From IMG/VR virus record IMGVR_UViG_3300021256_003716: 20,000 nt of DNA. One strand, given 5' to 3'. The stretch comes from an uncultured virus (IMG/VR IMGVR_UViG_3300021256_003716). Taxonomy: Duplodnaviria > Heunggongvirae > Uroviricota > Caudoviricetes. Under the pieces are notes generated by a model. The model saw only the letters and a list, made by a program, of their open reading frames with translations, had not been told where the DNA came from and made no database searches. The position numbers were made by a program, and so were the translations under genes. Position 1 is the stretch's first letter. The number at the start of each line of letters is the position of its first letter. Positions 120 to 19,134 of this stretch are shown here, piece after piece.

Positions 120-695
120 ATGTTAGACTATGGTCATGAAGCTGAAGCTATAGAAAATATCAACCGTGCAGTTAAGCTTACAGAAGAAATGTCTGAGATG
201 GCTATAAAATATAAAAAGTTGGCAGAGTTAGCTTATCTTGATGAAATAAATACTATTCAGCATAGCGTTTCATACTGGATGCTTGAAGCTACTTTAGAAA
301 AAAGTGAAAAGTGGCTTTCAATAATAAAAGAGAAGTATGATAAGCGTAGAAAGTATGAAGAGAAAGGTTCTTTTGAAGTTCTTACTTCACATATAATGTC
401 TGAAATAACTGGTACACCTATAGAAATAACAGATATTAGCACTCTGCATTATGCTGGTATGAGTCATGCTGTTAGGTTTAAGTGTGTGGATCAGGATTTT
501 GCATTATTTATTCCGCATCTTGCAGGTCTTAATAAAGAGACATATGGGTATTGCCATAAAGGTAAACTTGCATTATCTTATGTAAAAGACTCAGACCATG
601 GCTTAATAGCGAGAAGCTATAGGGAAGAGGATTTAAAAGAGCCATTTCAAAAATATATTAAGTCACATCAAGTACATAATGAATATTTTGAATAA
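120..695 (+). CDS. Hypothetical protein with C-terminal YF motif (NEYFE)
   Basis: 191 aa ORF, SD AGGAGA, followed by a terminator. Confidence 0.85.
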   Translation: MLDYGHEAEAIENINRAVKLTEEMSEMAIKYKKLAELAYLDEINTIQHSVSYWMLEATLEKSEKWLSIIKEKYDKRRKYEEKGSFEVLTSHIMSEITGTPIEITDISTLHYAGMSHAVRFKCVDQDFALFIPHLAGLNKETYGYCHKGKLALSYVKDSDHGLIARSYREEDLKEPFQKYIKSHQVHNEYFE

Positions 696-701
696 ATATT
701 T

Positions 702-732
702 AGCAGAGGTTTATACTCTGCTTTTTCTTTTT
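702..732 (+). terminator. Intrinsic terminator
   Basis: Stem AGCAGAG(702-708)/CTCTGCT(716-722) followed by a T-rich tract. Confidence 0.75.
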
Positions 733-742
733 ACATATTATA
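712..742 (+). promoter_or_regulatory. Repeated promoter, copy 2 (overlaps the terminator)
   Basis: TATACT(712-717)-N18-TATTAT(736-741) within ACATATTATA. Confidence 0.7.
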
Positions 743-758
743 AAATAAGGGGATTATT

Positions 759-992
759 ATGCTTACGCTACTTAAAATAAGTTTAATGTTAATAGTTATT
801 GGCTTTATGATTGTGGCCATCTGTTTATTAGCTAACCATATAACAAAATTTTTAGAAGTATCTTCTATACCTATGATAGATTCTATTTTATTTATTGGGT
901 CTATGCTTTTTTGTATTGGTTTATTACTTGTGACAATATTTTTTGCATTATATATTGTTAAATATCTTATTGCGCTTATACTTGCATTATAA
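759..992 (+). CDS. Small membrane protein, 2 predicted TM helices
   Basis: 77 aa, two long hydrophobic stretches, SD AAGGGG. Confidence 0.75.
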   Translation: MLTLLKISLMLIVIGFMIVAICLLANHITKFLEVSSIPMIDSILFIGSMLFCIGLLLVTIFFALYIVKYLIALILAL

Positions 993-1011
993 TTTTAGGT
1001 AGATTAACGGA

Positions 1012-1422
1012 ATGAATACTTTAGCTGGAATAATAGAAGATATAAATAAAAGCGAATTAGTTTCTGATAATGTTATTAAAGAAATTATAAAGCTTATTGG
1101 TCAAGACAAGTGGAATGAACTCCAAAATACTGTTAGCGATATTTGCACAACGCCTGGAGAACTTTTAATTACTCTAAAAGAAGCTCAGCAAATTGAAGAA
1201 AATGCTTTAGAAGGATGGTATATCGCTTATCGAGATGAGAATAATAAATTACATTATTATAGCGGTTGTAAGATGGGCTCCGGGTTTGTAAATGGTGTTT
1301 ATTCTGCTAAAATCTATAAATCTAAAGATAACGCAATAAAAACAATTGTAGATAAGAATAAAAGTGGTAAACCTGAATGGTTAGAGGCTTTTCCTCTTTA
1401 TGTTCAGATTTTATTTCCATAG
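1012..1422 (+). CDS. Hypothetical protein
   Basis: 136 aa; N-terminal half resembles 3355-3567 (IGQDKWNELQN vs IGEDRFHALEN). Confidence 0.8.
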   Translation: MNTLAGIIEDINKSELVSDNVIKEIIKLIGQDKWNELQNTVSDICTTPGELLITLKEAQQIEENALEGWYIAYRDENNKLHYYSGCKMGSGFVNGVYSAKIYKSKDNAIKTIVDKNKSGKPEWLEAFPLYVQILFP

Positions 1423-1431
1423 GAGAAATAT

Positions 1432-1800
1432 ATGTCGGATGTAATAACAGTAGAAAATATAGAAGATATTGTACGGGTTTTTAGAAAAAGTACTGGAAAA
1501 AGTATTGATGAAGTTTTACCAGAGATTAAAAATCTAGCCAAACCAAAAGAAACTTATATTAATAATTTAATGAAAGGATATATTGATCTTTTTATTGATT
1601 TAGCAGAAAAACAAGCACCAAATAGTGAAAATTTCAAAAAGTCAGCAAGAATGATTTTATATTCTTTTGTTAAAGAATACTCAGATAAGCTTTCAGAAGA
1701 AATATATTTTGGCGCCTATGATGACCACTGTTTGATAAGTGTGGACGCTGTAGAAAAAATTATTAAGAAAATAGGTATAAATCCTGAGGTAATCTCATGA
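1432..1800 (+). CDS. Hypothetical protein (internal SEEIYFG)
   Basis: 122 aa, SD AGGAGA, ATGA overlap with next gene. Confidence 0.8.
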   Translation: MSDVITVENIEDIVRVFRKSTGKSIDEVLPEIKNLAKPKETYINNLMKGYIDLFIDLAEKQAPNSENFKKSARMILYSFVKEYSDKLSEEIYFGAYDDHCLISVDAVEKIIKKIGINPEVIS

Positions 1801-2321
1801 CAGAGTTTAAGATAATGGTTTGTGGTTCTAGAACTATTACTGATAGAGAACTAGTATTTAAGTGGATTGAAAAAGATATTTCTATTCATCCAGATGATAA
1901 AATAATTATTATCGAGGGTGAAGCAAAAGGAGTAGACTCTATTGCTAAAGATTATGCTTTGATTAACCACTTGGATATTATGTCTTTCCCCGCTGATTGG
2001 AATAAATATGGAAAAGCGGCGGGTATAATCAGAAATGAAGAAATGGTTAAAGCTTGCGACCACTGTCTAATAATTTGGGATGGACAGAGTAAAGGTACAA
2101 AAAATGATATTGATCTTTGTAGGAAATATCATAAAACTTATAGAATAATTGTACCAGGAAAAGTAAATTGTAATTATTGTGATGAAAAAATAACTTTTGT
2201 AGATAAAACAAATGAAGACAATTTCTGTAATGAATGTCATATGAATACTTATACTTCTTGTAAATGTGAAAATTACAGTTGTTTTAGCTATGCTCTTGAA
2301 GAGAATATTGTAAAGCTTTAG
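1797..2321 (+). CDS. SLOG superfamily (DUF2493/YspA-like) nucleotide-binding protein with Cys-rich C-terminal extension
   Basis: Motifs VCGSR, EGEAKGVD, FPADWNKYGKAAGIIRNEEM and WDGQSKGT are typical of DUF2493; tail has CNYC/CNEC/CKC. Confidence 0.85.
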   Translation: MTEFKIMVCGSRTITDRELVFKWIEKDISIHPDDKIIIIEGEAKGVDSIAKDYALINHLDIMSFPADWNKYGKAAGIIRNEEMVKACDHCLIIWDGQSKGTKNDIDLCRKYHKTYRIIVPGKVNCNYCDEKITFVDKTNEDNFCNECHMNTYTSCKCENYSCFSYALEENIVKL

Positions 2322-2587: not shown

Positions 2588-2870
2588 TGCTATTGTTTAT
2601 AATGATAATCTTAAAGGCTCCATAAGTCCTTCAGTCAAAAAGCTAATAGAAGACTGGCGTGTTCTTCTAGAAAATGCGAAGGAAGTACCAAATGAGTTTA
2701 CATTTTATCCTGGGGAAATAATTAAAAATCCTAAAAAAATAATTAAAAAAGGTGAGCTCTCCGAGGAAGATGTAAGCCTGTACTTTGATGATTATCCAGC
2801 TATTAGTTATGAGCATATTGGTCTAGGTTTTCGTCTAGAAAGCTTATCGGAGATATATGTATGCCATTAA
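2580..2870 (+). CDS. Hypothetical protein (internal DVSLYFDD)
   Basis: 96 aa, overlaps both neighbours. Confidence 0.75.
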   Translation: MNNAIVYNDNLKGSISPSVKKLIEDWRVLLENAKEVPNEFTFYPGEIIKNPKKIIKKGELSEEDVSLYFDDYPAISYEHIGLGFRLESLSEIYVCH

Positions 2871-3163
2871 GTTCAGATATTATTGAAAAATTACCAGATA
2901 ATATAAAGGCGCTTGTAAATGATGGCTTTATTGATCTTGAAGTAATACAAGTTCAAGATTCTTTTAATGTAACTATTAAATTTCCAAAAGGTGAACCTGA
3001 TTTAGAAGTAGACTTTGAGGCGGATTTGGCGGGTATGTACTTTAATGAAGTGTCAGAGTATTCTAAAAAAGCGTATATAGAAGAGGAAGTTTATAATGCT
3101 ATAGCAGCAGTATATTTTGAAAATTTTAAGAAAGGAGAAAATTTTGTCAAACTCTACGATTAA
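2861..3163 (+). CDS. Acidic hypothetical protein with two internal YF motifs (LAGMYFNE, IAAVYFEN)
   Basis: 100 aa, SD GGAG. Confidence 0.8.
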   Translation: MPLSSDIIEKLPDNIKALVNDGFIDLEVIQVQDSFNVTIKFPKGEPDLEVDFEADLAGMYFNEVSEYSKKAYIEEEVYNAIAAVYFENFKKGENFVKLYD

Positions 3164-3801: not shown

Positions 3802-4662
3802 ATGATTAATAGTATTAAATTAATTCAAGAGCCAGAGCGAGAATTTAATTATATTCGTGAGCTTACTCGAAAAACACAAATTAGAAAACTCTATGAAATG
3901 CTTGAAAAAGGTATTGAATTTAAGTCTGGATTGAATTATATTATTGGTGAAAATGGTAGCGGTAAAACTACAATATTGAATATTATCCGCTCAGCTACAG
4001 GTTGTGAGCATTCTTTTATTCCACAGCCAGATTATTTACCTATAACTACTATTACTAGAATGAATGACCTTTTTGAAAGTTTTGAAGTAAAGGGTGATTA
4101 CTCTTATGCAATTTTTAATCTTTATAGACTTTTTGAAGATAAAGAAAAAGTTGGTAGCTCATCAGCTATGGACAGAACAGAAGACCTTAAGCTTTATCTT
4201 GCTGGAAAAGAAGAATCTAAAGGCCAAAATGTAATGGGTGACATAAATCAGCTGTTTAACTGGATGTTTGCACGACAAGATGAATGTTATCCTATTTTAA
4301 AATATATTAAAGATTGGCATGATCAGGGCCATTTTATTGAAATATCCTCTATAAATGATGAAAATGGCACAACCACTAAGCTGCTTAAAAATATTAATAA
4401 AAATCAGGTAAATACTGAAAAAGTTTATACTATTCTTATGGACGAGCCAGATCAAGGCTTAGATATAGAAAACTTAAAAGAGATTTATGGTGTTGTCAGC
4501 TATGATAAGCCAAGCACTCAACTTATTGCAGTTTTACATAATCCTATTTTGATTTATAAACTTTCAAAATTAGAAAATGTAAATTGGATTGAAACCACTC
4601 CCGGCTATCTTAACTCTGTTAAAAAAGATGTTGAAGAGTTTTATGATTGGATAAAGAAATAA
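3802..4662 (+). CDS. Stand-alone ABC-type (AAA_21/SMC-like) ATPase
   Basis: Walker A GENGSGKT, signature-like ESKGQ, Walker B/D-loop ILMDEPDQGLD, H-switch AVLHNP. Confidence 0.88.
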   Translation: MINSIKLIQEPEREFNYIRELTRKTQIRKLYEMLEKGIEFKSGLNYIIGENGSGKTTILNIIRSATGCEHSFIPQPDYLPITTITRMNDLFESFEVKGDYSYAIFNLYRLFEDKEKVGSSSAMDRTEDLKLYLAGKEESKGQNVMGDINQLFNWMFARQDECYPILKYIKDWHDQGHFIEISSINDENGTTTKLLKNINKNQVNTEKVYTILMDEPDQGLDIENLKEIYGVVSYDKPSTQLIAVLHNPILIYKLSKLENVNWIETTPGYLNSVKKDVEEFYDWIKK

Positions 4663-6143: not shown

Positions 6144-6770
6144 ATGTTAAGCAAAGAAGAAATAAATAAGTTTATATCTGAAAATTTTTCTGAAGAAAGT
6201 ATGCCAGAGCTTAATGTGAAGGTATCTATAAAGGGTGAAGAAGTTTCTGTAAAAAACTTATTGAAAGCCGCATATGAAAAAGGCTTAAGTCGCTCATATG
6301 ATGAGGAATTAAAAAAGAGATTTAGTTTTTCTAGAGACGTAGAGTTTAAATCAAATGGACTTTTCCCGGGGTATTATGTAGTAGCGCACCTCTACTCAGA
6401 AATGCCAGAGCTTTGTTATTTTAATGGTCAATGTCTTAGAACTGTTGGTGAAAATATTTATATATCAGAAGATGATATTATAGGTGCAGTAGAGATAAAT
6501 ATACCATCGGATATACTTGAAGAAGTTAAAAAATGGCGGGAAATGAATACAGCTAAAGTTGTCTGTCATGACATAGCTGACTCAATTGTATATCATAAAA
6601 ATGATAGAGAAGAACAAGAATATAATCTTTATTTGAGACTTAAACAAAAATTTGAAGAGCCAGATGAGTTTTCTTGTTTTCCAAAAATTACACTTCCAAA
6701 GGGAAGTGAAGAAAAAATTGATAAAATTGTAGATAATATTTATAAGAAAATAAAGGAGGAGACATATTAG
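6144..6770 (+). CDS. Hypothetical protein
   Basis: 208 aa, SD GAGGA. Confidence 0.8.
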   Translation: MLSKEEINKFISENFSEESMPELNVKVSIKGEEVSVKNLLKAAYEKGLSRSYDEELKKRFSFSRDVEFKSNGLFPGYYVVAHLYSEMPELCYFNGQCLRTVGENIYISEDDIIGAVEINIPSDILEEVKKWREMNTAKVVCHDIADSIVYHKNDREEQEYNLYLRLKQKFEEPDEFSCFPKITLPKGSEEKIDKIVDNIYKKIKEETY

Positions 6771-6771
6771 T

Positions 6772-7109
6772 ATGAAAAAGATTTTGTGGTTAGACGATTT
6801 TAGAGACCCAAAATATTTTTGTACTCTCGCTCCCTGAATAATCAATATAAAATTATTTGGGTAAAAAGCTATAAAGAATTTTGTGATAATATAATTGAAT
6901 GTGGCTTGCCCGATATTATATGTTTTGACCATGATTTAGGTGAAGAAAAAACGGGTTATGATTGTGCAAAGTTTGTTGTTAGCTATTGCCAAGAGCATAA
7001 TTTAGATATTCCAAAATTTGATATTCAAAGTTCAAATATTGTTGGAAAAGAAAATATAAGAAGTGTGCTGTTTAGTTGGCATAAGTTTTTTATGGAGAAT
7101 ATAGTATGA
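6772..7109 (+). pseudogene. Receiver-like (cyclic-phosphate processing REC type) protein interrupted by a -1 frame change; pseudogene or programmed frameshift
   Basis: SD AGGAGG + ATG 6772 gives MKKILWLDDFRDPK and stops at TGA 6835; the remainder (WVKSY, ICFDHDLG, TGYDCAKF, QSSNIVG) is in the -1 frame. Confidence 0.75.
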
Positions 7110-7435
7110 ATGTAGGCGCATTGATTGGTCTTGAATCTTATAGAGAGAGCCAGTTTGAATCTATAGCTGCTAAAATTTTCAGATGTGATGAAGAGGACGC
7201 AATTACATACGAATCAGAAGGTACTGTAATTCTTGACTTAGGATATACACCCTTCTTAAAAGGTGATATTAAACCTGTTATCGGTACAAATCTGGAAAAG
7301 CCATTTTTTGATTATATAAAAGATAAATATCATTGTATGGTGTCTATTTGTGGTAAGTCTAGCAGGTATTCAGACTATGTTAAACTTAAAATTCAAAAGT
7401 TTGATCCAAATAAAATAAATCTTGTTAAGGGGTAG
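7106..7435 (+). CDS. Hypothetical protein
   Basis: 109 aa, SD GGAG, ATGA overlap. Confidence 0.8.
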   Translation: MNVGALIGLESYRESQFESIAAKIFRCDEEDAITYESEGTVILDLGYTPFLKGDIKPVIGTNLEKPFFDYIKDKYHCMVSICGKSSRYSDYVKLKIQKFDPNKINLVKG

Positions 7436-7439
7436 CTTT

Positions 7440-7703
7440 ATGAAGATAAGAATAAAACGTAAATTATGCGCAAGAAAACGTGCACGGTATACAGTAATAA
7501 CTTTACTCGCATATTTTTTTGAAAATGTACCATATAAAACTGATATAAATAGACCAAATCATAGAATATATACACCACGAGATATGTCGGACATTGCTGA
7601 TTTTGAAAAAATAGAATCAAAACATGTTTTAGACGAATGTAAAAGATTATATGGTCATAAAATGAGAGACTTTTTGAAAGCTATTATTAAAGCGAGTACA
7701 TAA
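7440..7703 (+). CDS. Basic hypothetical protein
   Basis: ATG 7440 after AAGGGG preferred over the track start at 7422. Confidence 0.7.
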   Translation: MKIRIKRKLCARKRARYTVITLLAYFFENVPYKTDINRPNHRIYTPRDMSDIADFEKIESKHVLDECKRLYGHKMRDFLKAIIKAST

Positions 7704-7713
7704 GAGGTAGCAA

Positions 7714-8124
7714 ATGTCAACCCCAATGCAAGAATTGCCACAAAGAATAAAATGTGCTATGAAGTATATGGAAAATCCTATGGATTTAGCATATCAGCAA
7801 TGGTTACTTGCTTACAAGTTTTCTGTATTAGAAGAAACTTTAGGAAATAATAATTTTGATATTAGAGTTCTTTTTGATAAAGATGCTGGACAATATACTT
7901 TTGATATGTATTATAAGTATTTTCCATATCCGATGACAAATTTTATTAAAACATTTAACTGTACTGAAAAAGGCGTTAGAGAAGCGATTAAATATTGTAA
8001 AAAATTGGATGAAGATAATAATATAAGGCCTAAAACACAGAATGTTGATAATATATTAGATATACTTACAAAAGTATGCGATGAGCTAGCAGAGCAGAAT
8101 AGGGCTATAAATTATTTCAATTAA
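7714..8124 (+). CDS. Hypothetical protein with C-terminal YF motif (RAINYFN); shares a domain with 8135-8707
   Basis: 136 aa, SD GAGG; FNCTEKGVREAIKYCKKLD. Confidence 0.85.
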   Translation: MSTPMQELPQRIKCAMKYMENPMDLAYQQWLLAYKFSVLEETLGNNNFDIRVLFDKDAGQYTFDMYYKYFPYPMTNFIKTFNCTEKGVREAIKYCKKLDEDNNIRPKTQNVDNILDILTKVCDELAEQNRAINYFN

Positions 8125-8134
8125 GGAGAAAATA

Positions 8135-8707
8135 ATGTCTGAAGAAAATGTAAAATATGCCGAGGAAAACTTTAATACTGAATTGGTACCATGGACAAGA
8201 GACTATGATTGGAAAAAGATTAAGTCTTTATATGGAAATCCTAAATATAAAATCAGAATTTATAAAAGTTCATCTTTTAAGCAGCATGTAATTGATTTTA
8301 TTTTTGATTATAGTGATGCTGATCTTGAACGCTTAAAAGATAAACTGACAATTAATGGTAAGTACTTTGAATGTACCGAAGAAGGTGTTAAGGACGCAGT
8401 TACTTATTGCGCTGGTTTAGACAGAAATGCTGTAAAAAATAAAAAGAAAAAAGTTTATGTTTTGGGCAGAAAGCATAAACAGTTTTATATTACTTTTAAT
8501 GGTAATAAATTTGAAATAAAGCCTTATGATGAAAATCTTGAATCTATGGAAATGCTTAAAATAATGATTGGTGAACATTATTTGTATAGTGGTACTTATG
8601 CAGAATGTGCTGCTTTTAAGAGGGGATATGAGCATGGTTATAGTATTATGAAAATGTATCTAAAAAGCGTTTTTGAAAAGAACATAAGTATGGACTTTAC
8701 GGAGTAA
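8135..8707 (+). CDS. Hypothetical protein; shares a domain with 7714-8124
   Basis: 190 aa, SD AAGGAG; FECTEEGVKDAVTYCAGLD. Confidence 0.85.
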   Translation: MSEENVKYAEENFNTELVPWTRDYDWKKIKSLYGNPKYKIRIYKSSSFKQHVIDFIFDYSDADLERLKDKLTINGKYFECTEEGVKDAVTYCAGLDRNAVKNKKKKVYVLGRKHKQFYITFNGNKFEIKPYDENLESMEMLKIMIGEHYLYSGTYAECAAFKRGYEHGYSIMKMYLKSVFEKNISMDFTE

Positions 8708-8710
8708 TAA

Positions 8711-9133
8711 ATGTTAGAAGGCATTTGTGACGAAAAAACTTGGAAAAGAGCTATAAATAATAGTGGTTTTGGAAAGCCTAAAGAAGGTTGTCCAGATTTA
8801 GAAGTTGAAAAGCTTCATATGAGGCCTCTTGTAGAGGTCCCATTTAGTTTTAAACACCCTGTTTGCTCTATTATAATAAATACTCAGATAAGAGAGATAA
8901 ATAATAATATCTATAACTTAAAGTCAAAATACTTGGAGAAAGATGTAAATCTTATGTCTGAGGTATATTATGGCAAAACTGACATTAGTAATATAAGTTA
9001 TTGTTCTGATATTGCATTTGATTATATGCATAAATTTAATTCTGATGTAGCAAAAATAGAAGTATCAAAAGAAAAACTACGGGTATATATTCTATCGAAG
9101 TTAGGAGAGGATTGGCTACCGAAAGAAGCTTAA
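8711..9133 (+). CDS. Hypothetical protein
   Basis: 140 aa, SD GGAG. Confidence 0.8.
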   Translation: MLEGICDEKTWKRAINNSGFGKPKEGCPDLEVEKLHMRPLVEVPFSFKHPVCSIIINTQIREINNNIYNLKSKYLEKDVNLMSEVYYGKTDISNISYCSDIAFDYMHKFNSDVAKIEVSKEKLRVYILSKLGEDWLPKEA

Positions 9134-10296: not shown

Positions 10297-10464
10297 ATGG
10301 TAGGTGTATTAGCTCAAAAGTGGATTAAAGACGAAAAAAATAAAAAGAAGCAAAAAGCAGTTAGTACTAGTGATGCTAAAAAAGATACTAATGAAGCCAT
10401 AATTGAAAAAGACTCTAAAACTTTTGAAGTACTTTATAAATTTGCGGAGCTTATAAATGGATAA
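10297..10464 (+). CDS. Small hypothetical protein (55 aa, not in ORF track)
   Basis: MVGVLAQKW...FAELING*, SD AAGG, fills the gap in the operon. Confidence 0.65.
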   Translation: MVGVLAQKWIKDEKNKKKQKAVSTSDAKKDTNEAIIEKDSKTFEVLYKFAELING

Positions 10465-10624
10465 TAAAACTTTTGAAGAGTTACTTTCTGAAATAAAAAA
10501 TATGACTCCAGAGCAATATAATGAGTATCATAAAGAAGCTCTTAAAATGAAAAAATCATTTGATAAAATGATAGATGCTCTTGAAAGGTCAAGAAAGGAA
10601 AATCAGAATGAGCAAAAGATTTGA
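10457..10624 (+). CDS. Small hypothetical protein (55 aa, not in ORF track)
   Basis: MDNKTFEELL...NEQKI*, SD GGAG, overlaps both neighbours. Confidence 0.7.
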   Translation: MDNKTFEELLSEIKNMTPEQYNEYHKEALKMKKSFDKMIDALERSRKENQNEQKI

Positions 10625-11315
10625 CACGGAAGAGTTTAAAAAACGCCAGCTTGAAAAGCTAAAAAAATCGAAAAAAGAGCAATCTAAAAAAGATAGTCAT
10701 ACCGATCCAGAACTTGAAGATGCTATAGAAAATATATTAGAAAATATGGATGGTCTTTCAGAGCAAGCAAGAGTTGATGAATGGTTATTTATAGAAAAGA
10801 AGGAAAAGAAAACTATGACATTTAATGAAGAAATTGAAAAAGAAATAAATGAATTAAAATCTGGAACTGCATTAGATGATTCTAAAGCATATTTATCTAA
10901 TGAGTTTTACTATGAGAATATTCATGATAAAATTAAATGGGCATCAAATCTTGTAACAGATGGTCCTGTATCAAAACTTGCAATTAGAAGTATTATTGAA
11001 TGGGCATATCGTGAAGGTAAAGCTGATGGTATACTAGAAACTATGAAAAAGCTTGATGCTTATAATAAAGCAGAAAGAGAATTGATGGCTCAGAAAATGC
11101 CAAAATCACCTTTATCGCCTCATCTTGATTTAAGCAAAAATTTAAAAATGCCAAATTTAGAAAAGGATGAGTATACTAAAATATCTGATAAGTTTAAGTA
11201 TAAATGTACAAAATGTGGAAAATTGTTTTCTTCTAATACAATTCTTACATCTCTTCCACCCAAAGTTCAGTGTCCAGAGTGTGGAGAATATGTTATAATA
11301 GGTGGAAGTTTTTAA
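10608..11315 (+). CDS. Hypothetical protein with C-terminal Zn ribbon (CTKC...CPEC)
   Basis: ATG 10608 after AAGGA preferred over 10575; two CxxC pairs. Confidence 0.8.
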   Translation: MSKRFDTEEFKKRQLEKLKKSKKEQSKKDSHTDPELEDAIENILENMDGLSEQARVDEWLFIEKKEKKTMTFNEEIEKEINELKSGTALDDSKAYLSNEFYYENIHDKIKWASNLVTDGPVSKLAIRSIIEWAYREGKADGILETMKKLDAYNKAERELMAQKMPKSPLSPHLDLSKNLKMPNLEKDEYTKISDKFKYKCTKCGKLFSSNTILTSLPPKVQCPECGEYVIIGGSF

Positions 11316-11324
11316 TTCTTAATT

Positions 11325-12125
11325 ATGTTTGTAAAGTCTGACGATAAGGATAAATCTATAGTAGTTGGGTCTCTTGTTGAAATAGGAGAAATTCCTATGA
11401 ATACTAGCTGTGAATATAACGAAACTAGATTAGTAATTACTAATGATGGATATGTAATTTTTATAGATAAAGATAAATTAGATATTCCTAATCAGAGTAC
11501 TTTACCGCAAACATTAAATATGGATAAATATATAAAAAATAATCCTAATTATGTTTTAGTCAAAAGTTGTAGTAGCCTTGTAGATAATATTAAAAAGTTT
11601 GCATTTAGTAGAGAAGATGATTCAATTGAAGATGCTTTATACCATACACCAGAAACAATCGCAATATTAGCAGACGGCTATAAATATAATTATTTATTCT
11701 TAGGACAATACTTTGTGCAAGGCCGACAATTGGGTGGGGCAATTACATCTGCAATTAATAGTTGTCTTAGACCTGAAATAAAAAATAGCATATCAAAAAT
11801 GACTTTTGAAGAAATAAAAAATCATAATCCTAAGACGCCCTATTGTATTTTACTTGGTGATATTCTTTTAAATATTTGTCGTGCAATATGTCAAACTCGC
11901 CTTTATAAGGCCCATATAAGGGATACAAGTGATTCAAAGAGCACTAAGTGGACAACTTGTACAAAAATAATTAATTCTAGTTTATGGAATGAAAAAGAAA
12001 TTCAAAAATTCTTAAAAAATAAAAATCCAAAAGAGACATTTTTCAATTTTATGCCTTGGTTTAAAGATAAATACTATTTTGATCCAGAATTGGAGATGGC
12101 TGTAAATTATTTTAATGAGGTTTAG
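11325..12125 (+). CDS. Hypothetical protein with C-terminal YF motif (MAVNYFNEV)
   Basis: 266 aa ORF. Confidence 0.85.
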   Translation: MFVKSDDKDKSIVVGSLVEIGEIPMNTSCEYNETRLVITNDGYVIFIDKDKLDIPNQSTLPQTLNMDKYIKNNPNYVLVKSCSSLVDNIKKFAFSREDDSIEDALYHTPETIAILADGYKYNYLFLGQYFVQGRQLGGAITSAINSCLRPEIKNSISKMTFEEIKNHNPKTPYCILLGDILLNICRAICQTRLYKAHIRDTSDSKSTKWTTCTKIINSSLWNEKEIQKFLKNKNPKETFFNFMPWFKDKYYFDPELEMAVNYFNEV

Positions 12126-12127
12126 TT

Positions 12128-12400
12128 ATGTTTGACGGAAAAGTTTTTAGGTCTGTTTATAAACTTGATGAAGTAGAAATAAAAGCATTGCCTTATTATT
12201 TTGAAAAACTTAAAAAAGAATGTAAAACTAAATCAGATCTTTGTAAGCATTGTGAGTTTTATGGAACTGAAAAAGGTACAATGTTTATGACTCCTTGCCA
12301 TTTTTGTATAGGTACCACTAGAATGCAATTTCAGCCAATTAATTATGAACTTTATGATGAAGCATTTAAGCAAGGAATAACAGCTCTTTTAATAAATTAA
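12128..12400 (+). CDS. Small Cys-rich protein (CKHC, CHFC)
   Basis: 90 aa, SD GAGG. Confidence 0.8.
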   Translation: MFDGKVFRSVYKLDEVEIKALPYYFEKLKKECKTKSDLCKHCEFYGTEKGTMFMTPCHFCIGTTRMQFQPINYELYDEAFKQGITALLIN

Positions 12401-12402
12401 AA

Positions 12403-12687
12403 ATGAATATACAAGACAATATTGACTATTATAAATTTTTAATAAGGCTCAAGTTATATCACTCTAAAATAAAACTTTCAAAAAAGGATTTTTTAGAACA
12501 TAAATATTTTGAATTTTATGAGCGCGCTAGAGAAGATGGATATATTAAACTTGTTGAAGCAAATGAACCATATGGTCGTTTTTATGGAATAGAAGATATT
12601 GGATTACCAAATTCAGAAATGCTAAAAAATATGCTTAATGTAGATACTATAAATTCTATTAATTATTTTAATAGTTCTCTTTTTTAG
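12403..12687 (+). CDS. Hypothetical protein with near-terminal YF motif (NSINYFNSSLF)
   Basis: 94 aa ORF. Confidence 0.75.
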   Translation: MNIQDNIDYYKFLIRLKLYHSKIKLSKKDFLEHKYFEFYERAREDGYIKLVEANEPYGRFYGIEDIGLPNSEMLKNMLNVDTINSINYFNSSLF

Positions 12688-12715
12688 AATTACTATAATA
12701 AAAGCACATATTATA
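12685..12715 (+). promoter_or_regulatory. Repeated promoter, copy 4
   Basis: TAGAAT(12685-12690; includes the upstream stop)-N18-TATTAT(12709-12714); ATG 4 nt later. Confidence 0.65.
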
Positions 12716-12718
12716 TTT

Positions 12719-13036
12719 ATGAAATTGTTTCTATTATCTTTATTAGGAAAGCCCCTCTCTAATTGGCTTCAGAATTATGCTAATGAACATAATTGTTATG
12801 TTTGTATGGATGAGCCAATGTATTCCCCATTAAGATTTAATTCTTTTATACAAGTGCCTCATATTGTTTTTGATGAAGAAGATGGAGACCATTATTGGGT
12901 ATGTCCTCATCCTAAGCCTTGTAGATATTGTAAGAATAATAAAAAATGTAAACAGCTTGGGGACAAAATTCCGAGAAGACTTAAAAAATTATATAAGTTT
13001 ATAGATTATAAGAAACTTTATATGCCTCAAAAATAA
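12719..13036 (+). CDS. Small Cys-rich protein
   Basis: 105 aa; CYVC, C-x5-CRYC-x5-C; probable leaderless start. Confidence 0.75.
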   Translation: MKLFLLSLLGKPLSNWLQNYANEHNCYVCMDEPMYSPLRFNSFIQVPHIVFDEEDGDHYWVCPHPKPCRYCKNNKKCKQLGDKIPRRLKKLYKFIDYKKLYMPQK

Positions 13037-13061
13037 AAATAATAATTAAGAGGATACTTTT

Positions 13062-13424
13062 ATGAATTTAGCGTTATTTACAGAGAGACTCGAAACAATT
13101 AAAAAGTTAGATAAAAAATTGGATGCGTTAGTAAAGTCTTTTAATGAAAATAACCCTTTTTTGGATGATGCTTGTGGTGTGCGCTCTTCAGCCTTATCTG
13201 ACTTAATTTATGAACATGTATATACATTATTTGTCACAATTATAAAAGAGGGACCCCGCGATTTTATAGAAAAGGGACTTCGTGATTTTATAGAATATTA
13301 TTTATATGACCATAATTATGGCGGAACTATTATAGTTGATTCCATAGAATACAATTTAGAAGATTACTCACAATTATATAATTATTTAAAATTATGTCCC
13401 AACTCATTTTTAGCATTACCATAG
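13062..13424 (+). CDS. Hypothetical protein
   Basis: 120 aa, SD GAGGA. Confidence 0.8.
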   Translation: MNLALFTERLETIKKLDKKLDALVKSFNENNPFLDDACGVRSSALSDLIYEHVYTLFVTIIKEGPRDFIEKGLRDFIEYYLYDHNYGGTIIVDSIEYNLEDYSQLYNYLKLCPNSFLALP

Positions 13425-13441
13425 TCTAGCTACATATTATA
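13411..13441 (+). promoter_or_regulatory. Repeated promoter, copy 5
   Basis: TAGCAT(13411-13416)-N18-TATTAT(13435-13440) within ACATATTATA. Confidence 0.65.
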
Positions 13442-13449
13442 TATAAATT

Positions 13450-13842
13450 ATGATTACAGATAATTGCGAAAATTTTGATAAAGCTCTTAAAAATTGCATT
13501 GTATCAACAATTGGTAGAATGGTAGATGATAATGATTTTAAGGCTATTCGAATTTTTTTACTTGCAGCAGTTTCTGTAGCAAAAGATACTTATTTGTCAT
13601 ATATACCAATAAAGCATGTTAAAGCCTTAGAAAATCTAACAGTCGAACAAATAAATACAGATATAAATAAAATTTTTTGGCCAGAAAATGATTATTTATA
13701 TGTTATTGAGCAAAAGGTTACACCAATTTATAGTCCACTTGGATATAGGAATGTATCAAAAAAGTTTTTGGAAAAAGTTCTTATAGAAGATTTAACAAGT
13801 AAAACAAATGACTATATTGCTTCAATATATTTTGATAGTTAA
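13450..13842 (+). CDS. YF-tail paralog family protein (IASIYFDS)
   Basis: 130 aa; aligns with 13852-14235 and 18315-18674. Confidence 0.85.
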   Translation: MITDNCENFDKALKNCIVSTIGRMVDDNDFKAIRIFLLAAVSVAKDTYLSYIPIKHVKALENLTVEQINTDINKIFWPENDYLYVIEQKVTPIYSPLGYRNVSKKFLEKVLIEDLTSKTNDYIASIYFDS

Positions 13843-13851
13843 AAATAACTT

Positions 13852-14235
13852 ATGAGTAATACAGCTAGAAATCTTGAAGAAGAATTTAAGAAATCTATAC
13901 CACCCTACGAAAAAATATCAGAGGTGGATTTAGAAAAATGCATGCAGTTTTTGCCCTATGCATTGGCGCTAGCAATAGAATGTTATTCTAAATATCTTCC
14001 AAAAGATTCTATAAATAATTCCGAAGTAATTACAAATAAAGAAGCTATACAAATCTCTAATTCATTACTTTGGGAACAGAATAAATTTTTTAGTGAATTA
14101 GAAGAATCCCTATTGCCTATAAGTTGCCCAGGTAAGTGGAGATCAATAATAAAAGATTTTATTGGGAAAATTATTGTTGAAGATTTAATGAATAAATCAA
14201 AAGAAATTGAAGCTTCAATATATTTTGATAATTAG
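13852..14235 (+). CDS. YF-tail paralog family protein (EASIYFDN)
   Basis: 127 aa; tandem paralog of the previous gene. Confidence 0.85.
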   Translation: MSNTARNLEEEFKKSIPPYEKISEVDLEKCMQFLPYALALAIECYSKYLPKDSINNSEVITNKEAIQISNSLLWEQNKFFSELEESLLPISCPGKWRSIIKDFIGKIIVEDLMNKSKEIEASIYFDN

Positions 14236-14254
14236 AGAAAGGAGAAATATAAAA

Positions 14255-14818
14255 ATGGGAAAAACAATTTTTGCAATTATTGATTCAAAGACTCACAAAG
14301 TAGTAGATTCTGTTCAAGCAAGAGAGTCTAGCAAAGCAGTTAAAGAGTTTAAAATGCTTTTTAAGAAGAATTATACAAAACTAAACTGGCATAAGTTTCT
14401 TCCTGAAGAGATTTCAATTTGTGACTTAAAAGAGCTTCGTCCGGACTACAGTGATGTATTTACTTATGATAGTGATTGTATAAGCAATGAAGATTTGAAA
14501 AAATTGGGATATGTTAAGGCTCCAGAAGATTATCATAACATCATCTATTCTTTATTATTTAAGATTCCATATTATAGTATAGATGGTGATATTTATACTC
14601 CAAAAGAATCTTTGGAATATATTAAGAAGATTATATCTACTGAATATAAGCCGCTGGTTATTAAAGGAACTGATGAACCTTATTGGTTTAATGTAGATGG
14701 TAATTTAGTAGCATCTGACAATCCAAATTGGTTTATTCACCTCTTTGAAAAATTCAGAATTGTTAATGAGGCAGCGCTTGTTGATTACAAACCAAAATCT
14801 GTAAAAAAAGCTGAATAA
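14255..14818 (+). CDS. Hypothetical protein
   Basis: ATG 14255 after AAGGAG preferred over 14207. Confidence 0.8.
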   Translation: MGKTIFAIIDSKTHKVVDSVQARESSKAVKEFKMLFKKNYTKLNWHKFLPEEISICDLKELRPDYSDVFTYDSDCISNEDLKKLGYVKAPEDYHNIIYSLLFKIPYYSIDGDIYTPKESLEYIKKIISTEYKPLVIKGTDEPYWFNVDGNLVASDNPNWFIHLFEKFRIVNEAALVDYKPKSVKKAE

Positions 14819-14821
14819 AAA

Positions 14822-15127
14822 ATGAAGAAAGAATTTGTACCGTCTTTAACAAGAAATGCTCCAACTAAAAAGTCAAGACCAAAAGCAGGACCTTTACCGC
14901 CTAACTTGACCAAAAAAGCTGAAAAAACAGTTGAAGATGTTGAAGTTCCAGAATACCCAAAAATAAAAATTGTAAAAGAAGATTTTAATCTTTTTAAAGC
15001 TTTTGGTCCTAAAAAGGATGTATTTGCGGAAAATACTTATAAAATGTTTTGGGCTCAGTTGATTTTTGCTTTATTTATTTTTGGGTCAGGCGTATTAGTT
15101 GGATTAGCAGTTAGAATTCTATTCTAA
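14822..15127 (+). CDS. Protein with C-terminal TM anchor and Pro/Lys-rich N-terminus
   Basis: 101 aa; FWAQLIFALFIFGSGVLVGLAV. Confidence 0.8.
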   Translation: MKKEFVPSLTRNAPTKKSRPKAGPLPPNLTKKAEKTVEDVEVPEYPKIKIVKEDFNLFKAFGPKKDVFAENTYKMFWAQLIFALFIFGSGVLVGLAVRILF

Positions 15128-15141
15128 TAAATAAATAATAA

Positions 15142-15172
15142 AAGCCGGATTTTTAAGTCCGGCTTATTTTTT
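15142..15172. terminator. Bidirectional intrinsic terminator
   Basis: AAGCCGGA/TCCGGCTT stem with A-rich 5' and T-rich 3' flanks, between convergent genes. Confidence 0.85.
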
Positions 15173-15174
15173 AA

Positions 15175-15420
15175 CTATTCAATTTCTGCCCAATAATAGT
15201 GACCACCATAACAGTGGTACTGCGCATATACTTTGTCGCCTTCTTTCTTATAAGGCTCCGTAGTACGCCAAGCAACATTTATATAATGACCGGGATTTTT
15301 CTTGGCTTCCTCAACGCACTTGGCACACTTAACTGAATGACCATAGTGATGATAAGTAACGCTAAATCCGGCCGTTACCATAAGAAATAAAAACAATAAT
15401 AACATTATAATCTTCTTCAC
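15175..15420 (-). CDS. Small secreted Cys/His protein with signal peptide
   Basis: GTG start with SD AAGGA; MKKIIMLLLFLFLMVTAGFS; H-x3-CAKC ... HCYGGH. Confidence 0.8.
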   Translation of the reverse strand: MKKIIMLLLFLFLMVTAGFSVTYHHYGHSVKCAKCVEEAKKNPGHYINVAWRTTEPYKKEGDKVYAQYHCYGGHYYWAEIE

Positions 15421-15508
15421 TTTATTTTTCCTTTTATTTTTAATTATATTTTAATATATATTTTATATTAGCTAAGAATAGTATAACAAGAATAATAGGT
15501 AACATACA

Positions 15509-15539
15509 TAGACTTAAATAAATTTACTTATATATTATA
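15509..15539 (+). promoter_or_regulatory. Repeated promoter, copy 6
   Basis: TAGACT(15509-15514)-N18-TATTAT(15533-15538); ATG 4 nt later. Confidence 0.75.
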
Positions 15540-15542
15540 TAT

Positions 15543-15971
15543 ATGTATGAGTTAACTATAGATAAATTTAACAGACTTGAGAGTGTTATAGAACAATTTT
15601 GGTTAACGCCACGTGATAAAAAACTATATGAAATTATATTTTATTCTGATGATTTTAAAAACCTTTATACTGATATAATGTATAATAAAGAAGAGTACCT
15701 TACTTATGGTCTAAAGGATATGCTTTATGATTGTCAGTTAGGAAAGTTTATGGAACCAATGCCAGTGGCAATATCTAATTGTGATTTTTTTGCAACGCAG
15801 CTTATAGATAAATTACGAAATGATAGCCTTAAGGAGTTATTTAGAAATTACGATAATTATCATAAAGGTATTTTCAACGGTTTTAGAACTTTTTTAATAA
15901 TGGAATTAAGTAATGCATTTCTGAATGACCTTATAGGACAAAAGTTTTTACCTGCTTTATATTTTGATTAG
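15543..15971 (+). CDS. YF-tail paralog family protein (LPALYFD)
   Basis: 142 aa; FLIMELSNAFLND shared with 16084 and 16533. Confidence 0.85.
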   Translation: MYELTIDKFNRLESVIEQFWLTPRDKKLYEIIFYSDDFKNLYTDIMYNKEEYLTYGLKDMLYDCQLGKFMEPMPVAISNCDFFATQLIDKLRNDSLKELFRNYDNYHKGIFNGFRTFLIMELSNAFLNDLIGQKFLPALYFD

Positions 15972-15999
15972 ACTTATAAGAATTTATTTATATATTATA
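15969..15999 (+). promoter_or_regulatory. Repeated promoter, copy 7
   Basis: TAGACT(15969-15974; includes the upstream stop)-N18-TATTAT(15993-15998). Confidence 0.75.
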
Positions 16000-16005
16000 T
16001 ATAAT

Positions 16006-16074
16006 ATGGATTGGGTTATTAGTATAAAAAATATATTAGGTAATATAAATTTATTACAGATGTATTTTAACTAG
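16006..16074 (+). CDS. 22-aa micropeptide MDWVISIKNILGNINLLQMYFN with YF motif (not in ORF track)
   Basis: ATG 7 nt after the promoter -10; ends ATG TAT TTT AAC TAG. Confidence 0.65.
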   Translation: MDWVISIKNILGNINLLQMYFN

Positions 16075-16083
16075 GGGTATATT

Positions 16084-16524
16084 TTGGCTAAGTACGGGTT
16101 TTATTGTTGGGGCTTATTAGAAGGAATTCTTAAAAGTGCAAATACCCCTGAAAGAGAAATTGAAAATTGTTATATTGCGTATTATACAGGGTCTCTTGAA
16201 GCAAAATTATTAGATCTTATAATAAATAGAAATAGCTGCTTTAATGAACTTACACAAGAGTCACATGATGTGCTTAAAACTTGGGATTATACTCTTAATA
16301 AAGAAAATTTAATAAAGGCTATAAATTGGTGTGATAGTCTTGCAATAAGTATAGAAGCTGTTAATGCGTCTGAAATTATCGAGTCATATAAAGATCATTA
16401 TGCATTAAGTAAAAAATCTATACAAGCAATTAAGCAGTATTTTATAATGTGGCTAAGTAATTCATTCTTAAATGATATACTGACGGCACAAGATAATTTA
16501 TCAGACTTATATTTTGGTGACTAG
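16084..16524 (+). CDS. YF-tail paralog family protein (LSDLYFGD)
   Basis: 146 aa, TTG start after AGGGG; YFIMWLSNSFLND. Confidence 0.8.
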   Translation: MAKYGFYCWGLLEGILKSANTPEREIENCYIAYYTGSLEAKLLDLIINRNSCFNELTQESHDVLKTWDYTLNKENLIKAINWCDSLAISIEAVNASEIIESYKDHYALSKKSIQAIKQYFIMWLSNSFLNDILTAQDNLSDLYFGD

Positions 16525-16532
16525 GAAGAAGT

Positions 16533-16973
16533 ATGGACCTTAGTGAACAGGGATATAGCCTTTTTAAGCGACTATGTATACTTGCTGAAATGAGTGAACT
16601 AGACGTAAAAGCTATGGATTGGCTAAAATATTATTGGTATAATGCGCCTATTACTCTTAAAGCTATTATTCCACCTGTAATATTTTATAGAGAAAAATAT
16701 ATAGAAGCATTTGCAAGTAAATATCAAAAAGATTTCTTAAGTTATCTTAATGATGTAGAAAGTTTAAGCAAAATAAGTTATATTGAGTTCTGTGATAAAG
16801 TTGCTGAAGCTATCGTATATAACCAAGTAAAAGATTTTTTTAGCCCCATTCATGATATGCAAGAAAATATAAAATCAGTATGTAAGAAATTTCTTTTAAT
16901 AGAGCTTAGCAATAATATTTTATGGGATATAAAATTAAATCAGTCGCAGATTGTTAAAATGTATTTTAATTAA
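16533..16973 (+). CDS. YF-tail paralog family protein (IVKMYFN)
   Basis: 146 aa; FLLIELSNNILWD. Confidence 0.85.
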   Translation: MDLSEQGYSLFKRLCILAEMSELDVKAMDWLKYYWYNAPITLKAIIPPVIFYREKYIEAFASKYQKDFLSYLNDVESLSKISYIEFCDKVAEAIVYNQVKDFFSPIHDMQENIKSVCKKFLLIELSNNILWDIKLNQSQIVKMYFN

Positions 16974-16982
16974 GGAATAAAT

Positions 16983-17432
16983 ATGGAAATTAAATTAAAT
17001 GAACAAAATATAGATATTGTATATGAGCGTGGCGAATGGAGCCGTACAGCTCTTATTTATGAAGAGCATATGCAACAAATATTTCAGACAATTTTGCCGG
17101 TAATTCTTAGAGCTATTATGCTACGGTTTACAGTAGATACAGATGAAATAATGTCTTGTATGCGTAAGAAAGAACTCCGACAATTTCCACTTTCCAGAGA
17201 AGCTGAGGCAGAAGTACTTTTTAATATTAAGTCCACCATTACGCGGCTTGATATGAAATATCCTTTTATAGAAAGTACTGTGCTTACTATCGTTCAAGGT
17301 TTTGGGGAAAAAGTATTAGTTGAGGCTCGCACAACTATGCCATCTATAAAAAAATATTTATGCTGGTTTCTTGCGCGAATGGTCCTTAAAGAAATTGAAG
17401 CACAAAAAGATGAGGTATTAAAATATTTCTAA
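16983..17432 (+). CDS. YF-tail protein (EVLKYF)
   Basis: 149 aa, SD AAGGA. Confidence 0.85.
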   Translation: MEIKLNEQNIDIVYERGEWSRTALIYEEHMQQIFQTILPVILRAIMLRFTVDTDEIMSCMRKKELRQFPLSREAEAEVLFNIKSTITRLDMKYPFIESTVLTIVQGFGEKVLVEARTTMPSIKKYLCWFLARMVLKEIEAQKDEVLKYF

Positions 17433-17905
17433 TGAGTAGTATATCCACAAATGCGCCTGAATGGCAATTAGAACCTTTTTCTCCATTATCGAATTATCCT
17501 GATTTTATATGTAAAGAAGCATCTCATTTTGTAATAGGCACGAATTTTATTAAGTCAGAAAAATTAGTTTCAGCTGTGAGCTTAACGCAAAAACGTATAG
17601 TAGAACATTTACATATATGGATTGATGAAAAAGATTCTAATAAACTAAGACGCCTACGAGAACAGTACAAGAATCATACAATAAATCATGATGGTTTATT
17701 AGTACTAACAGCAAGTAATATTAAAAATAAACTGATGAGACTTGACTGTCCTTTTTGGTCATTAATCTGTTGGCCAACATTAAAGGATTGCAGTGAAGCC
17801 TATTCCAAGGACTTACAATGGTATTTTGGAGAGTTTATTCATAGATATATTGTTTATGATACAAAGCATTATAAAGACTTACTTGCAGAGGAATATTTTA
17901 ATTAA
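17432..17905 (+). CDS. YF-tail protein (LAEEYFN)
   Basis: 157 aa, TAATG overlap. Confidence 0.85.
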   Translation: MSSISTNAPEWQLEPFSPLSNYPDFICKEASHFVIGTNFIKSEKLVSAVSLTQKRIVEHLHIWIDEKDSNKLRRLREQYKNHTINHDGLLVLTASNIKNKLMRLDCPFWSLICWPTLKDCSEAYSKDLQWYFGEFIHRYIVYDTKHYKDLLAEEYFN

Positions 17906-17908
17906 ATT

Positions 17909-18313
17909 ATGTCACCACTTGTTTTACCTTGGGATGAAGAAGTAACTTTATTTCTGAAACACTTTTTAAGAGCAAACTATTCTGCGGAAGATATGCTTAT
18001 TTGTGCTGCTTTCTTAACAGAAAGACTTCCAGTAATAACAGCTACATTTGAAAAATATGTCTCAGCAGAAACACTTAAAAAATTTGTAAATTCATCAACG
18101 GGTTGCTCTATTTCAAAGGCGGATGCAATAGGAAGAAAAGTAGCTTATAATAAAGAATTCGAAAAGGAAGTCTTAAAAGCTACTGGGGTCTTTTTAAGTG
18201 ATGATAATCTTAATGACATTAAAGCATATCTTACAAGCTTTATAAGCCGTACGGTAAGAGACAAATATTACTTGACTAGTTTTGAGATTTCTGATTTATA
18301 TTTTGGAGATTAG
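17909..18313 (+). CDS. YF-tail paralog family protein (ISDLYFGD)
   Basis: 134 aa. Confidence 0.85.
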   Translation: MSPLVLPWDEEVTLFLKHFLRANYSAEDMLICAAFLTERLPVITATFEKYVSAETLKKFVNSSTGCSISKADAIGRKVAYNKEFEKEVLKATGVFLSDDNLNDIKAYLTSFISRTVRDKYYLTSFEISDLYFGD

Positions 18314-18314
18314 T

Positions 18315-18674
18315 ATGAACCCAATAACAATACAAAGAAAGTTTTATTATTATGTACCTGAAACAATTTCTAAAACTGACTTTACTCATTGCTGTGTATA
18401 TTTAGAATCTGCAATACCTAAAGCATTAAAACTTTATCCTAAATATATTCCATATATACCAGAAAATAAAACTGTAGATGAACAGCTAGCGGGCAGTTAT
18501 GCATATAGTGTACTTTATCAGAACGACGACTTTCAAGAAGAGTTAAATTTAGTTGATGAAGGAAATTGGTTTCCACCACAATATTGGGAGAACATAAAAG
18601 AGTTTCTTAGGCATATTATTAAGAAAGATATATTAAATCAGTATTGCAATATTCCGGAGATGTATTTTGGTTAG
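18315..18674 (+). CDS. YF-tail paralog family protein (IPEMYFG)
   Basis: ATG 18315 after GGAG preferred over 18282; YLESAIPKALKLYPKYIP aligns with 13450 and 13852. Confidence 0.85.
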   Translation: MNPITIQRKFYYYVPETISKTDFTHCCVYLESAIPKALKLYPKYIPYIPENKTVDEQLAGSYAYSVLYQNDDFQEELNLVDEGNWFPPQYWENIKEFLRHIIKKDILNQYCNIPEMYFG

Positions 18675-19134
18675 TAAATTAAACTTTAGAAAACCCGATG
18701 GAGAATTTCATCTTAAATCAAGAGATAAATTTAAAGATGAGACTCTGGACTATCTATCATTAGACAAAACTCAAAAACATAATCTCTTAGTCGTACAATA
18801 TGAGTTGATTGAAGTTATAGGCAAATGCTTTGAAAGCTGGCTATCCGAAGAACACCTAAAAGACTTACTAAAAGCATCTTATTCAGCCAGTATAAAAGGC
18901 GAATATTCTGAGCTAAATTCTGCTATTATCGCAGCAGATATTTCTATTATGTTAGGCGGTCATCCAATCAATATAAGCCTTCTTACCGACTTCAAAGAAA
19001 CAGAGAAATATAACAATTTACCGGACTATATAAAAGAAGAAGTAATACCATCAGAATTCAGGCTTCTTATCAGACGCTATATAAACTGGAACCTATCAAT
19101 AAAAGAATCAGAATCTAAAGAATACTTTCAATAA
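18667..19134 (+). CDS. YF-tail protein (ESKEYFQ)
   Basis: 155 aa, TTG start after GGAGA, followed by a terminator. Confidence 0.8.
   Translation: MVSKLNFRKPDGEFHLKSRDKFKDETLDYLSLDKTQKHNLLVVQYELIEVIGKCFESWLSEEHLKDLLKASYSASIKGEYSELNSAIIAADISIMLGGHPINISLLTDFKETEKYNNLPDYIKEEVIPSEFRLLIRRYINWNLSIKESESKEYFQ

Follow-up and report, generated by a model that had tools for sequence, protein, structure and literature searches.

The 20,000-nucleotide stretch of DNA analysed here (the window) belongs to an uncultured virus of the Caudoviricetes (IMG/VR record IMGVR_UViG_3300021256_003716). It has 29-30% G+C and holds about 50 short open reading frames (ORFs), all on the plus strand between 120 and 19134 and tightly packed or overlapping. 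Nineteen of its roughly 49 plus-strand ORFs, coding for proteins of 22 to 266 amino acids (aa), end in Tyr-Phe (YF) followed by zero to five residues, and the full motif reads [A/S/P]-x-x-Y-F-[D/N/G]. All nineteen terminal YF tails listed in a first-pass annotation of the window are present in the sequence, and we name the carriers by their ORF starts, as was done there (Table 1). They are spread over several transcription units bounded by a promoter-like word, YATATTATA, and terminator-like hairpins.

Terminal YF is strongly enriched in the window ORFs, as the first-pass annotation had supposed: 19 cases stand against 0.95 expected from composition in 49 ORFs (binomial P 3.3e-20), and 1500 shuffles gave a mean of 0.98 and a maximum of 5. 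YF dipeptides at any position number 35 in 50 ORFs (6205 aa) against 18.6 expected, and 19 of the 35 lie no more than five residues from the C-terminus; the second most common terminal dipeptide is FN, found in 8 ORFs. When the paralogue family described below is counted once and a 22-aa mini-ORF is dropped, 8 of 38 groups carry the tail (P 5.9e-7). The same ORF pipeline returned 8 of 851 ORFs (0.9%) in 33 other phage loci, several of them as AT-rich as the window, compared with 17 of 47 in the window itself. A chance origin of terminal YF was rejected on the composition and shuffle enrichment.

The residues around YF are constrained as well. Counting from the Tyr, 15 of 19 tails have A, S or P at position -3 (background 0.142, P 4e-10) and 3 have a hydrophobic residue there; 16 have D, N or G at +2 (background 0.156, P 7e-11). 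Of the 10 carriers outside the paralogue family, 8 show each of these preferences. Internal YF dipeptides have a small residue at -3 in just 2 of 15 cases, and motif-like internal copies in non-carriers were LAGMYFNE and IAAVYFEN (2861-3163) and VSLYFDD (2580-2870). The acidic segment that had been described in front of the motif exists as a trend, with a mean net charge over the last 20 residues of -1.4 in carriers versus +0.5 in non-carriers (Mann-Whitney p 0.004), but is not universal, since 12 of 19 carriers are net negative there. Isoelectric points fall between 4.5 and 6.6 in all 19 carriers and exceed 7.5 in 10 of 30 non-carriers. No carrier passes a curated cut-off in Pfam, PHROGs, NCBIfam or PADLOC, and the only profile rows listed, ORF 120 to Pol III psi (16.8 bits, cut-off 180) and ORF 17909 to Cas10 (E 0.0018), are at chance level. 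A literature search for a described motif of this kind returned, among the matches listed, just the "YF motifs" of peroxiredoxin and HEG1, and none on phages.

Such a signal might be read in the protein or in the DNA. The argument first given for selection on the peptide, that the codons vary, is weak, as Tyr is TAT in 17 of 19 tails and Phe is TTT in 17 of 19, which mirrors usage across the window (TAT 327 versus TAC 33, 91%; TTT 287 versus TTC 22, 93%). Its conclusion stands on the reading frame instead. Of the 27 TAYTTYRRY sites on the plus strand, 21 are in frame 0, where they encode Y-F-[DNG], with 3 more in another frame and 3 between genes (on the minus strand there are 11), and the word is absent from the ends of non-carrier genes. 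This frame bias is decisive, and it shows selection on the motif as a peptide. The near-uniform codons and the location of the motif 6-18 nt before stop codons could also be explained by a DNA-level signal, in which TATTTTRAT near gene ends would serve transcription, translation coupling or recombination, with the peptide as its by-product. However, the uniformity is that of background codon use, the sites outside frame 0 lie away from gene ends save a chance one at 16080, and non-carrier gene ends lack such a site; moreover, several different codons are used at the constrained positions -3 and +2, and the spacing to the next start codon is widely variable. A DNA-level signal was rejected as the cause of the motif on the reading-frame evidence, and we find it hardly credible.

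Table 1. Tail carriers and other features of the window (position 1 is its first nucleotide; YF, position of the terminal Tyr-Phe codons).
Feature	Coordinates	Strand	YF	C-terminus	Remarks
Carrier, 191 aa	120..695	+	684	QVHNEYFE	First gene after promoter-like site 95; terminator 702-722 downstream
Carrier, 85 aa	2330..2587	+	2573	IEARAYFNE	Variants retain YF
Carrier, 70 aa	3355..3567	+	3556	EEASLYFD	Body weakly similar to tail-less ORF 1012-1422
Carrier, 97 aa	4690..4983	+	4972	RIAEIYFD	
Carrier, 97 aa	5017..5310	+	5299	EESISYFN	Promoter-like site 5003, 6 nt before ATG
Carrier, 136 aa	7714..8124	+	8113	NRAINYFN	N-terminal domain homologous to tail-less neighbour 8135-8707
Carrier, 266 aa	11325..12125	+	12108	EMAVNYFNEV	
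Carrier, 94 aa	12403..12687	+	12664	INSINYFNSSLF	Longest extension after F, 5 aa
Family A carrier, 130 aa	13450..13842	+	13828	YIASIYFDS	
Family A carrier, 127 aa	13852..14235	+	14221	IEASIYFDN	Modelled protein
Family A carrier, 142 aa	15543..15971	+	15960	FLPALYFD	
Tail-only mini-ORF, 22 aa	16006 (ATG)..16074	+	16063	NLLQMYFN	Promoter-like site 15991, 6 nt before ATG; 36 aa from TTG 15964 in the ORF listing
Family A carrier, 146 aa	16084..16524	+	16510	NLSDLYFGD	TTG start
Family A carrier, 146 aa	16533..16973	+	16962	QIVKMYFN	Body similar to tail-less ORF 7106-7435
Family A carrier, 149 aa	16983..17432	+	17424	DEVLKYF	F is last; weak, leave-one-out E 0.0026
Family A carrier, 157 aa	17432..17905	+	17894	LLAEEYFN	Weak, leave-one-out E 0.006
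Family A carrier, 134 aa	17909..18313	+	18299	EISDLYFGD	
Family A carrier, 119 aa	18315 (ATG)..18674	+	18663	NIPEMYFG	
Carrier, 155 aa	18667..19134	+	19123	SESKEYFQ	TTG start uncertain; terminator 19137-19157 downstream
YspA-type SLOG domain, PHROG 289	1797-2321	+			Curated-family match
ABC/SMC-type ATPase head	3802-4662	+			Curated-family match; also like defence-system ATPases
cREC_REC receiver domain, PHROG 1479	6819-7109	+			Curated-family match
Promoter-like word YATATTATA	95, 734, 5003, 12707, 13433, 14568, 15531, 15991	+			Plus-strand copies

About half of the carriers are paralogues. Blastp and iterated profiles connect 13450, 13852, 18315, 17909, 15543, 16084 and 16533, and leave-one-out profiles recovered 9 of 10 candidates as the top match (E 1e-11 to 6e-3), with 16983 and 17432 joining weakly; membership of ORF 18667 was unsupported in its leave-one-out profile (E 0.084, rank 4). 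This group, which we call family A, is a tandem array of 9-10 diverged copies on one strand, located at 13450-14235 and 15543-18674. The earlier statement that many carriers show no other similarity is thus right for the other 9-10 of the 19, which resemble neither the family nor each other detectably, and wrong for these 9-10. The 22-aa ORF 16006 resembles the end of family A proteins and is probably the remnant of a family A gene. Even so, a promoter-like site of its own precedes it by 6 nt.

A family A profile run against 1.84 billion representative proteins had 10 matches, and because all of these were window proteins or their variants at 80-100% identity, family A is a new orphan all-alpha paralogue family. 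Searches for homologous proteins of 13852 and 7714 returned the query itself only, an IMG/VR scan with 13852 gave one match, spurious and confined to the tail (L001), and the ESM Atlas had no usable match for 13852 or 11325. Y and F account for two of the four columns that reach 90% conservation in an alignment of 10 family sequences, which share 10-30% identity with its first row. Using this alignment, AlphaFold2 produced a confident all-alpha model of 13852, with a predicted local distance difference test score (pLDDT) of 85.3 and a predicted template modelling score (pTM) of 0.80. The model had no Foldseek match at E 0.001 or better in PDB or BFVD, and its best VIA-align Z of 6.9 is within the range common for helical proteins. 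A two-copy complex prediction for the family scored 0.00 against a mark of 0.42, which speaks neither for nor against self-association.

The carriers outside family A are 120, 2330, 3355, 4690, 5017, 7714, 11325, 12403 and perhaps 18667. None has a blastp match to another carrier below E 0.09, a profile of the family A last helix with the motif masked retrieves none of them, and a tblastn search of 11325 against phages found no match. Judged by sequence comparison, the tail is present in about ten groups that cannot be shown to be related, although some of them may be very distant kin. The portability proposed in the first-pass annotation finds some support in homologous bodies with and without the tail, of which the window holds three pairs. 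ORF 7714 and the tail-less 8135 have a common N-terminal domain (E 3e-8, z 9.9), after which 8135 diverges and ends in SMDFTE, and similar bodies are found in 16533 and the tail-less 7106 (E 0.005, z 8.0) and in 3355 and the tail-less 1012 (E 0.035, z 5.8). A proline at -3 (15543, 18315) or at -9 (2330, 11325) separates the YF turn from the preceding helix. ORFs 120 and 11325 appear partly beta-rich, and the AlphaFold2 model of 120, made from the single sequence, was unusable (pLDDT 41). In contigs of two runs from different studies, position 11348 is joined to 12066, so that 717 nt (239 codons) are skipped in frame, with 7 letters common at the joint. This join would leave 8 + 19 codons ending in the tail, any intervening letters aside, and the body of the 266-aa carrier 11325 seems to be dispensable or replaceable in related strains.

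Variation among strains was followed in database variants of 13 carriers (80-99% identity), which have 127 substitutions over 2183 aligned positions. Tail flanks (-6 to +4) were changed at 10 of 114 positions and YF itself at 0 of 30. Beside YF, the substitutions include A to V or T at -3; N to T, M to I and A to D at -1; and S or E to G at +3. In a variant of 17432 that is 80% identical, an internal YF has become YL and the terminal YF is kept. Among 40 differences listed of 1289 single-letter differences in runs X2-X5, none is at a tail.

The chances seem to us about even that the motif, in its fuller form [A/S/P]-x-(hydrophobic or N)-Y-F-[D/N/G], is a functional peptide element, namely a portable, one-turn helical docking tail at the C-terminus that is read by one partner. 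A small or proline residue at -3 would start the turn, Tyr-Phe together with hydrophobic residues at -1 and -4 would form a hydrophobic plug, and D, N or G would cap the turn, while the usual acidic flank might steer the tail onto a basic surface. The tail would then be read by one common partner, most probably specified by another part of the large element or by the host, and fast-evolving small acidic accessory proteins would thereby be brought to the same place. Concerning the partner, a site in the virion or capsid interior and a replication or DNA-metabolism hub such as a clamp or a protein like the single-stranded DNA-binding protein (SSB) each take up a small and roughly equal part of this chance, a host target takes up a still smaller one, and other partners share the remainder. 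In a more specific version, which we regard as possible and place somewhat short of even, a giant uncultured ruminant-gut phage would use an undescribed C-terminal address that gathers ten or more unrelated small acidic proteins with rapid turnover at a single hub, which would be the capsid interior or a replication or host-takeover complex. Such an address would be the C-terminal, uncleaved counterpart of the T4 capsid-targeting idea, and the 22-aa tail-only ORF could act as a competitor or regulator of the hub.

We infer that the tail binds anything at all, that it has a single partner and where this partner acts. Several points weigh against a docking tail. Judging by the profile matches, 9-10 of the 19 carriers owe their tail to common descent, by duplication and not by repeated acquisition, and the searches brought up relatives of family A and of two other carriers in near-identical strains only. 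The strain variants agree with selection on YF, yet taken alone they fall short of significance (at the mean substitution rate, 0 changes in 30 has P about 0.17). In the 13852 model, the last helix (94-125; 32 residues, part of the bundle) runs through Y124 and F125, and residues 121-127 are ordered (pLDDT about 71), unlike the disordered context typical of linear motifs. Y also continues the hydrophobic stripe of this helix (-4, -11, -15, -19), which is our reading of the position table and not a computed result. Finally, with tails removed, 7 of 108 non-family carrier pairs exceed z 3 in Smith-Waterman comparisons, versus about 2.5% of other pairs.

The main rival reading is a structural helix cap inherited by descent, in which most or all carriers would be one hyper-diverged, tandem-duplicated alpha-helical superfamily and YF with D, N or G the buried end of the last helix, retained for holding the bundle together and not for being read by a partner. 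That YF closes a long ordered helix in the 13852 model, with Y on its hydrophobic face by our reading, is the strongest point for such a cap, and the slight excess of weak similarity outside the family goes in the same direction. So do the recovery of 9 of 10 tested members of the 13450-19134 block by leave-one-out profiles, the carriers that adjoin like tandem duplicates (4690/5017, both 97 aa; 2330/3355; 11325/12403) and the fact that D, N and G are common helix C-cap residues. On the other hand, the carriers range from 22 to 266 aa, the smallest being too short for a bundle, and ORFs 120 and 11325 look partly beta-rich, even though the model of 120 is unusable. Further, nothing else aligns once the motif is masked, homologous bodies exist that have no tail, and the prolines at -3 or -9 set the YF turn off from the helix before it. 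The first-pass annotation had itself named one common fold with a structural YF as the contrary case. This is a live rival for part of the set, as YF in the family A model is an ordered helix end and not a floppy tail. Taken as a whole, we consider a structural cap a serious explanation, if on the unlikely side.

A hydrophobic motif near the C-terminus of many co-transcribed small proteins might also be a degron or timer that marks them for a protease or adaptor and for removal at a set stage, and bacterial C-terminal degrons are known. However, the degrons we know of depend on the last few, mostly non-polar residues, whereas here F is followed by anything from 0 to 5 residues and the chain mostly ends in a polar or acidic one. 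Curated-family scans of the window also revealed no protease or adaptor, and we take a degron to be improbable.

Returning to a docking tail, we tested it against three known types of peptide as we know their definitions, the capsid-targeting sequence (CTS), the PCNA-interacting peptide (PIP) box and SSB-type tails, and it belongs to none of them. The CTS of T4 is an N-terminal peptide on the internal proteins IPI-III and Alt that ends in a prohead-protease site ([LI]-x-E). It resembles the present case in that one short peptide is found on otherwise unrelated, fast-evolving small phage proteins from variable cassettes, each with its own promoter. Unlike the N-terminal CTS, the tail described here is at most five residues from the C-terminus in 19 of 19 carriers and has no conserved cleavage motif in front of it (E at -4 in 6 of 19, position -6 mixed), and its carriers are acidic where those of the CTS are basic.

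Clamp-binding motifs include the PIP-box Q-x-x-[LIM]-x-x-[FY]-[FY] and the bacterial QL[SD]LF, and their bearers include the clients of PCNA and the T4/RB69 polymerase, gp33 and gp55, whose tails bind the gp45 clamp. They likewise combine a short motif at or near the C-terminus, an aromatic pair, a nearby acidic or small residue and many clients of one hub. However, the Q at -6 that defines the PIP-box is found in 1 of 19 tails, and where clamp-binding motifs have L, I or M three residues before the aromatic pair, 15 of 19 tails have A, S or P. Phe-terminated acidic tails occur at the tip of bacterial SSB (DDDIPF) and in T7 gp2.5 and gp4, where they dock onto basic pockets of their partners. 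The likeness lies in an acidic run followed by a hydrophobic or aromatic C-terminal anchor, but F is the last residue in just 1 of 19 tails (ORF 16983), and where SSB is one protein with many partners, here many proteins have one tail.

Encapsulin cargo-loading peptides and the coat-binding helices of scaffolding proteins are also short C-terminal peptides or helices, and direct proteins into a shell of the HK97 fold; they differ in having no sequence resemblance to the tail, and the window is without capsid genes. The array at 13450-19134, with its repeated promoter-like sites, is similar to the tandem orphan paralogue families in accessory or early regions of jumbo phages, except that here the same terminal motif is also found on proteins outside the array that have nothing else in common with it. 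Import into a compartment had been another candidate function. For nucleus-forming phages, one paper states that no import signal is known at either the N- or the C-terminus and that what is recognised is a folded surface (PMC11087766); a compartment-import reading would therefore be without precedent. Nothing in the window points to a nucleus-forming phage.

Should the tail prove to be an address, an entire set of orphan phage proteins could be assigned to one place of action, and the 6-10 residues of the tail would offer a handle (tail versus YF-to-AA) with which pull-down or co-folding could locate that place. Phage protein-sorting tags, of which few are known, would also gain a C-terminal and apparently uncleaved type. 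At the same time the tail is a cautionary case, since half of a striking count is one paralogue family, in which the motif belongs to the fold.

The setting of these genes is presumably an accessory-gene region of a large uncultured phage-like element. The SLOG, ABC/SMC-type ATPase and cREC_REC ORFs (Table 1) are typical conflict or accessory genes of large phages, and a few zinc ribbons are the other curated-family matches in the window. For the SLOG and cREC proteins, the best matches among GenBank phages come from phages of 300-355 kb. Window proteins are recorded in the protein database on two contigs, of which the longer has 940,564 bp; this far exceeds any phage known to us, and the element may be an exceptionally large phage, may be integrated into a bacterial chromosome or may reflect a repeated assembly. 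Animal-gut metagenome runs, bovine ones among them, carry DNA that is nearly identical or about 95% identical, and segments from three further studies match the window. GenBank phages and plasmids contain no DNA near-identical to it, and the sole contig found in a metagenome scan is identical to window positions 6928-19884 and hence adds no new context. A GTDB genome scan had no match, nor did an IMG/VR scan with ORF 3802. An integron-like array of attC cassettes was ruled out, as the intergenic spaces are only a few bases long. In the region 6284-7007, the differences listed for run X2 that lie within an unannotated ORF at 6144-6770 (208 aa) are mostly spaced 3 nt apart, at third codon positions, which indicates purifying selection on the 208-aa protein.

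The promoter-like word YATATTATA occurs in 11 copies against 3.75 expected, a number reached in 0 of 200 shuffles. Seven of the eight plus-strand copies are located 3-16 nt upstream of ATGs, at 120, 759, 5017, 12719, 13450, 15543 and 16006. Because these sites have no -35 box and five of them leave no room for a Shine-Dalgarno site, the arrangement suggests a phage-specific promoter with near-leaderless mRNAs; a literature search on the word returned nothing relevant. Just past the last carrier gene and its terminator, at 19372-19542, lies an iteron-like repeat field with AATATAGCCTTAGAAG in three copies at 62-nt spacing and CTCAAGTATAT in four, in which run X2 has many small deletions. This field may be a replication origin or a protein-binding array. 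It is followed by a G+C-rich island in the AT-rich DNA (19655-19880), which had no Rfam match and in which a 63-aa ORF (19659-19850) is probably spurious. The island ends in a strong terminator hairpin (19849-19873) and folds better than 200 of 200 shuffles (z -4.2), making it a candidate for a structured small RNA.

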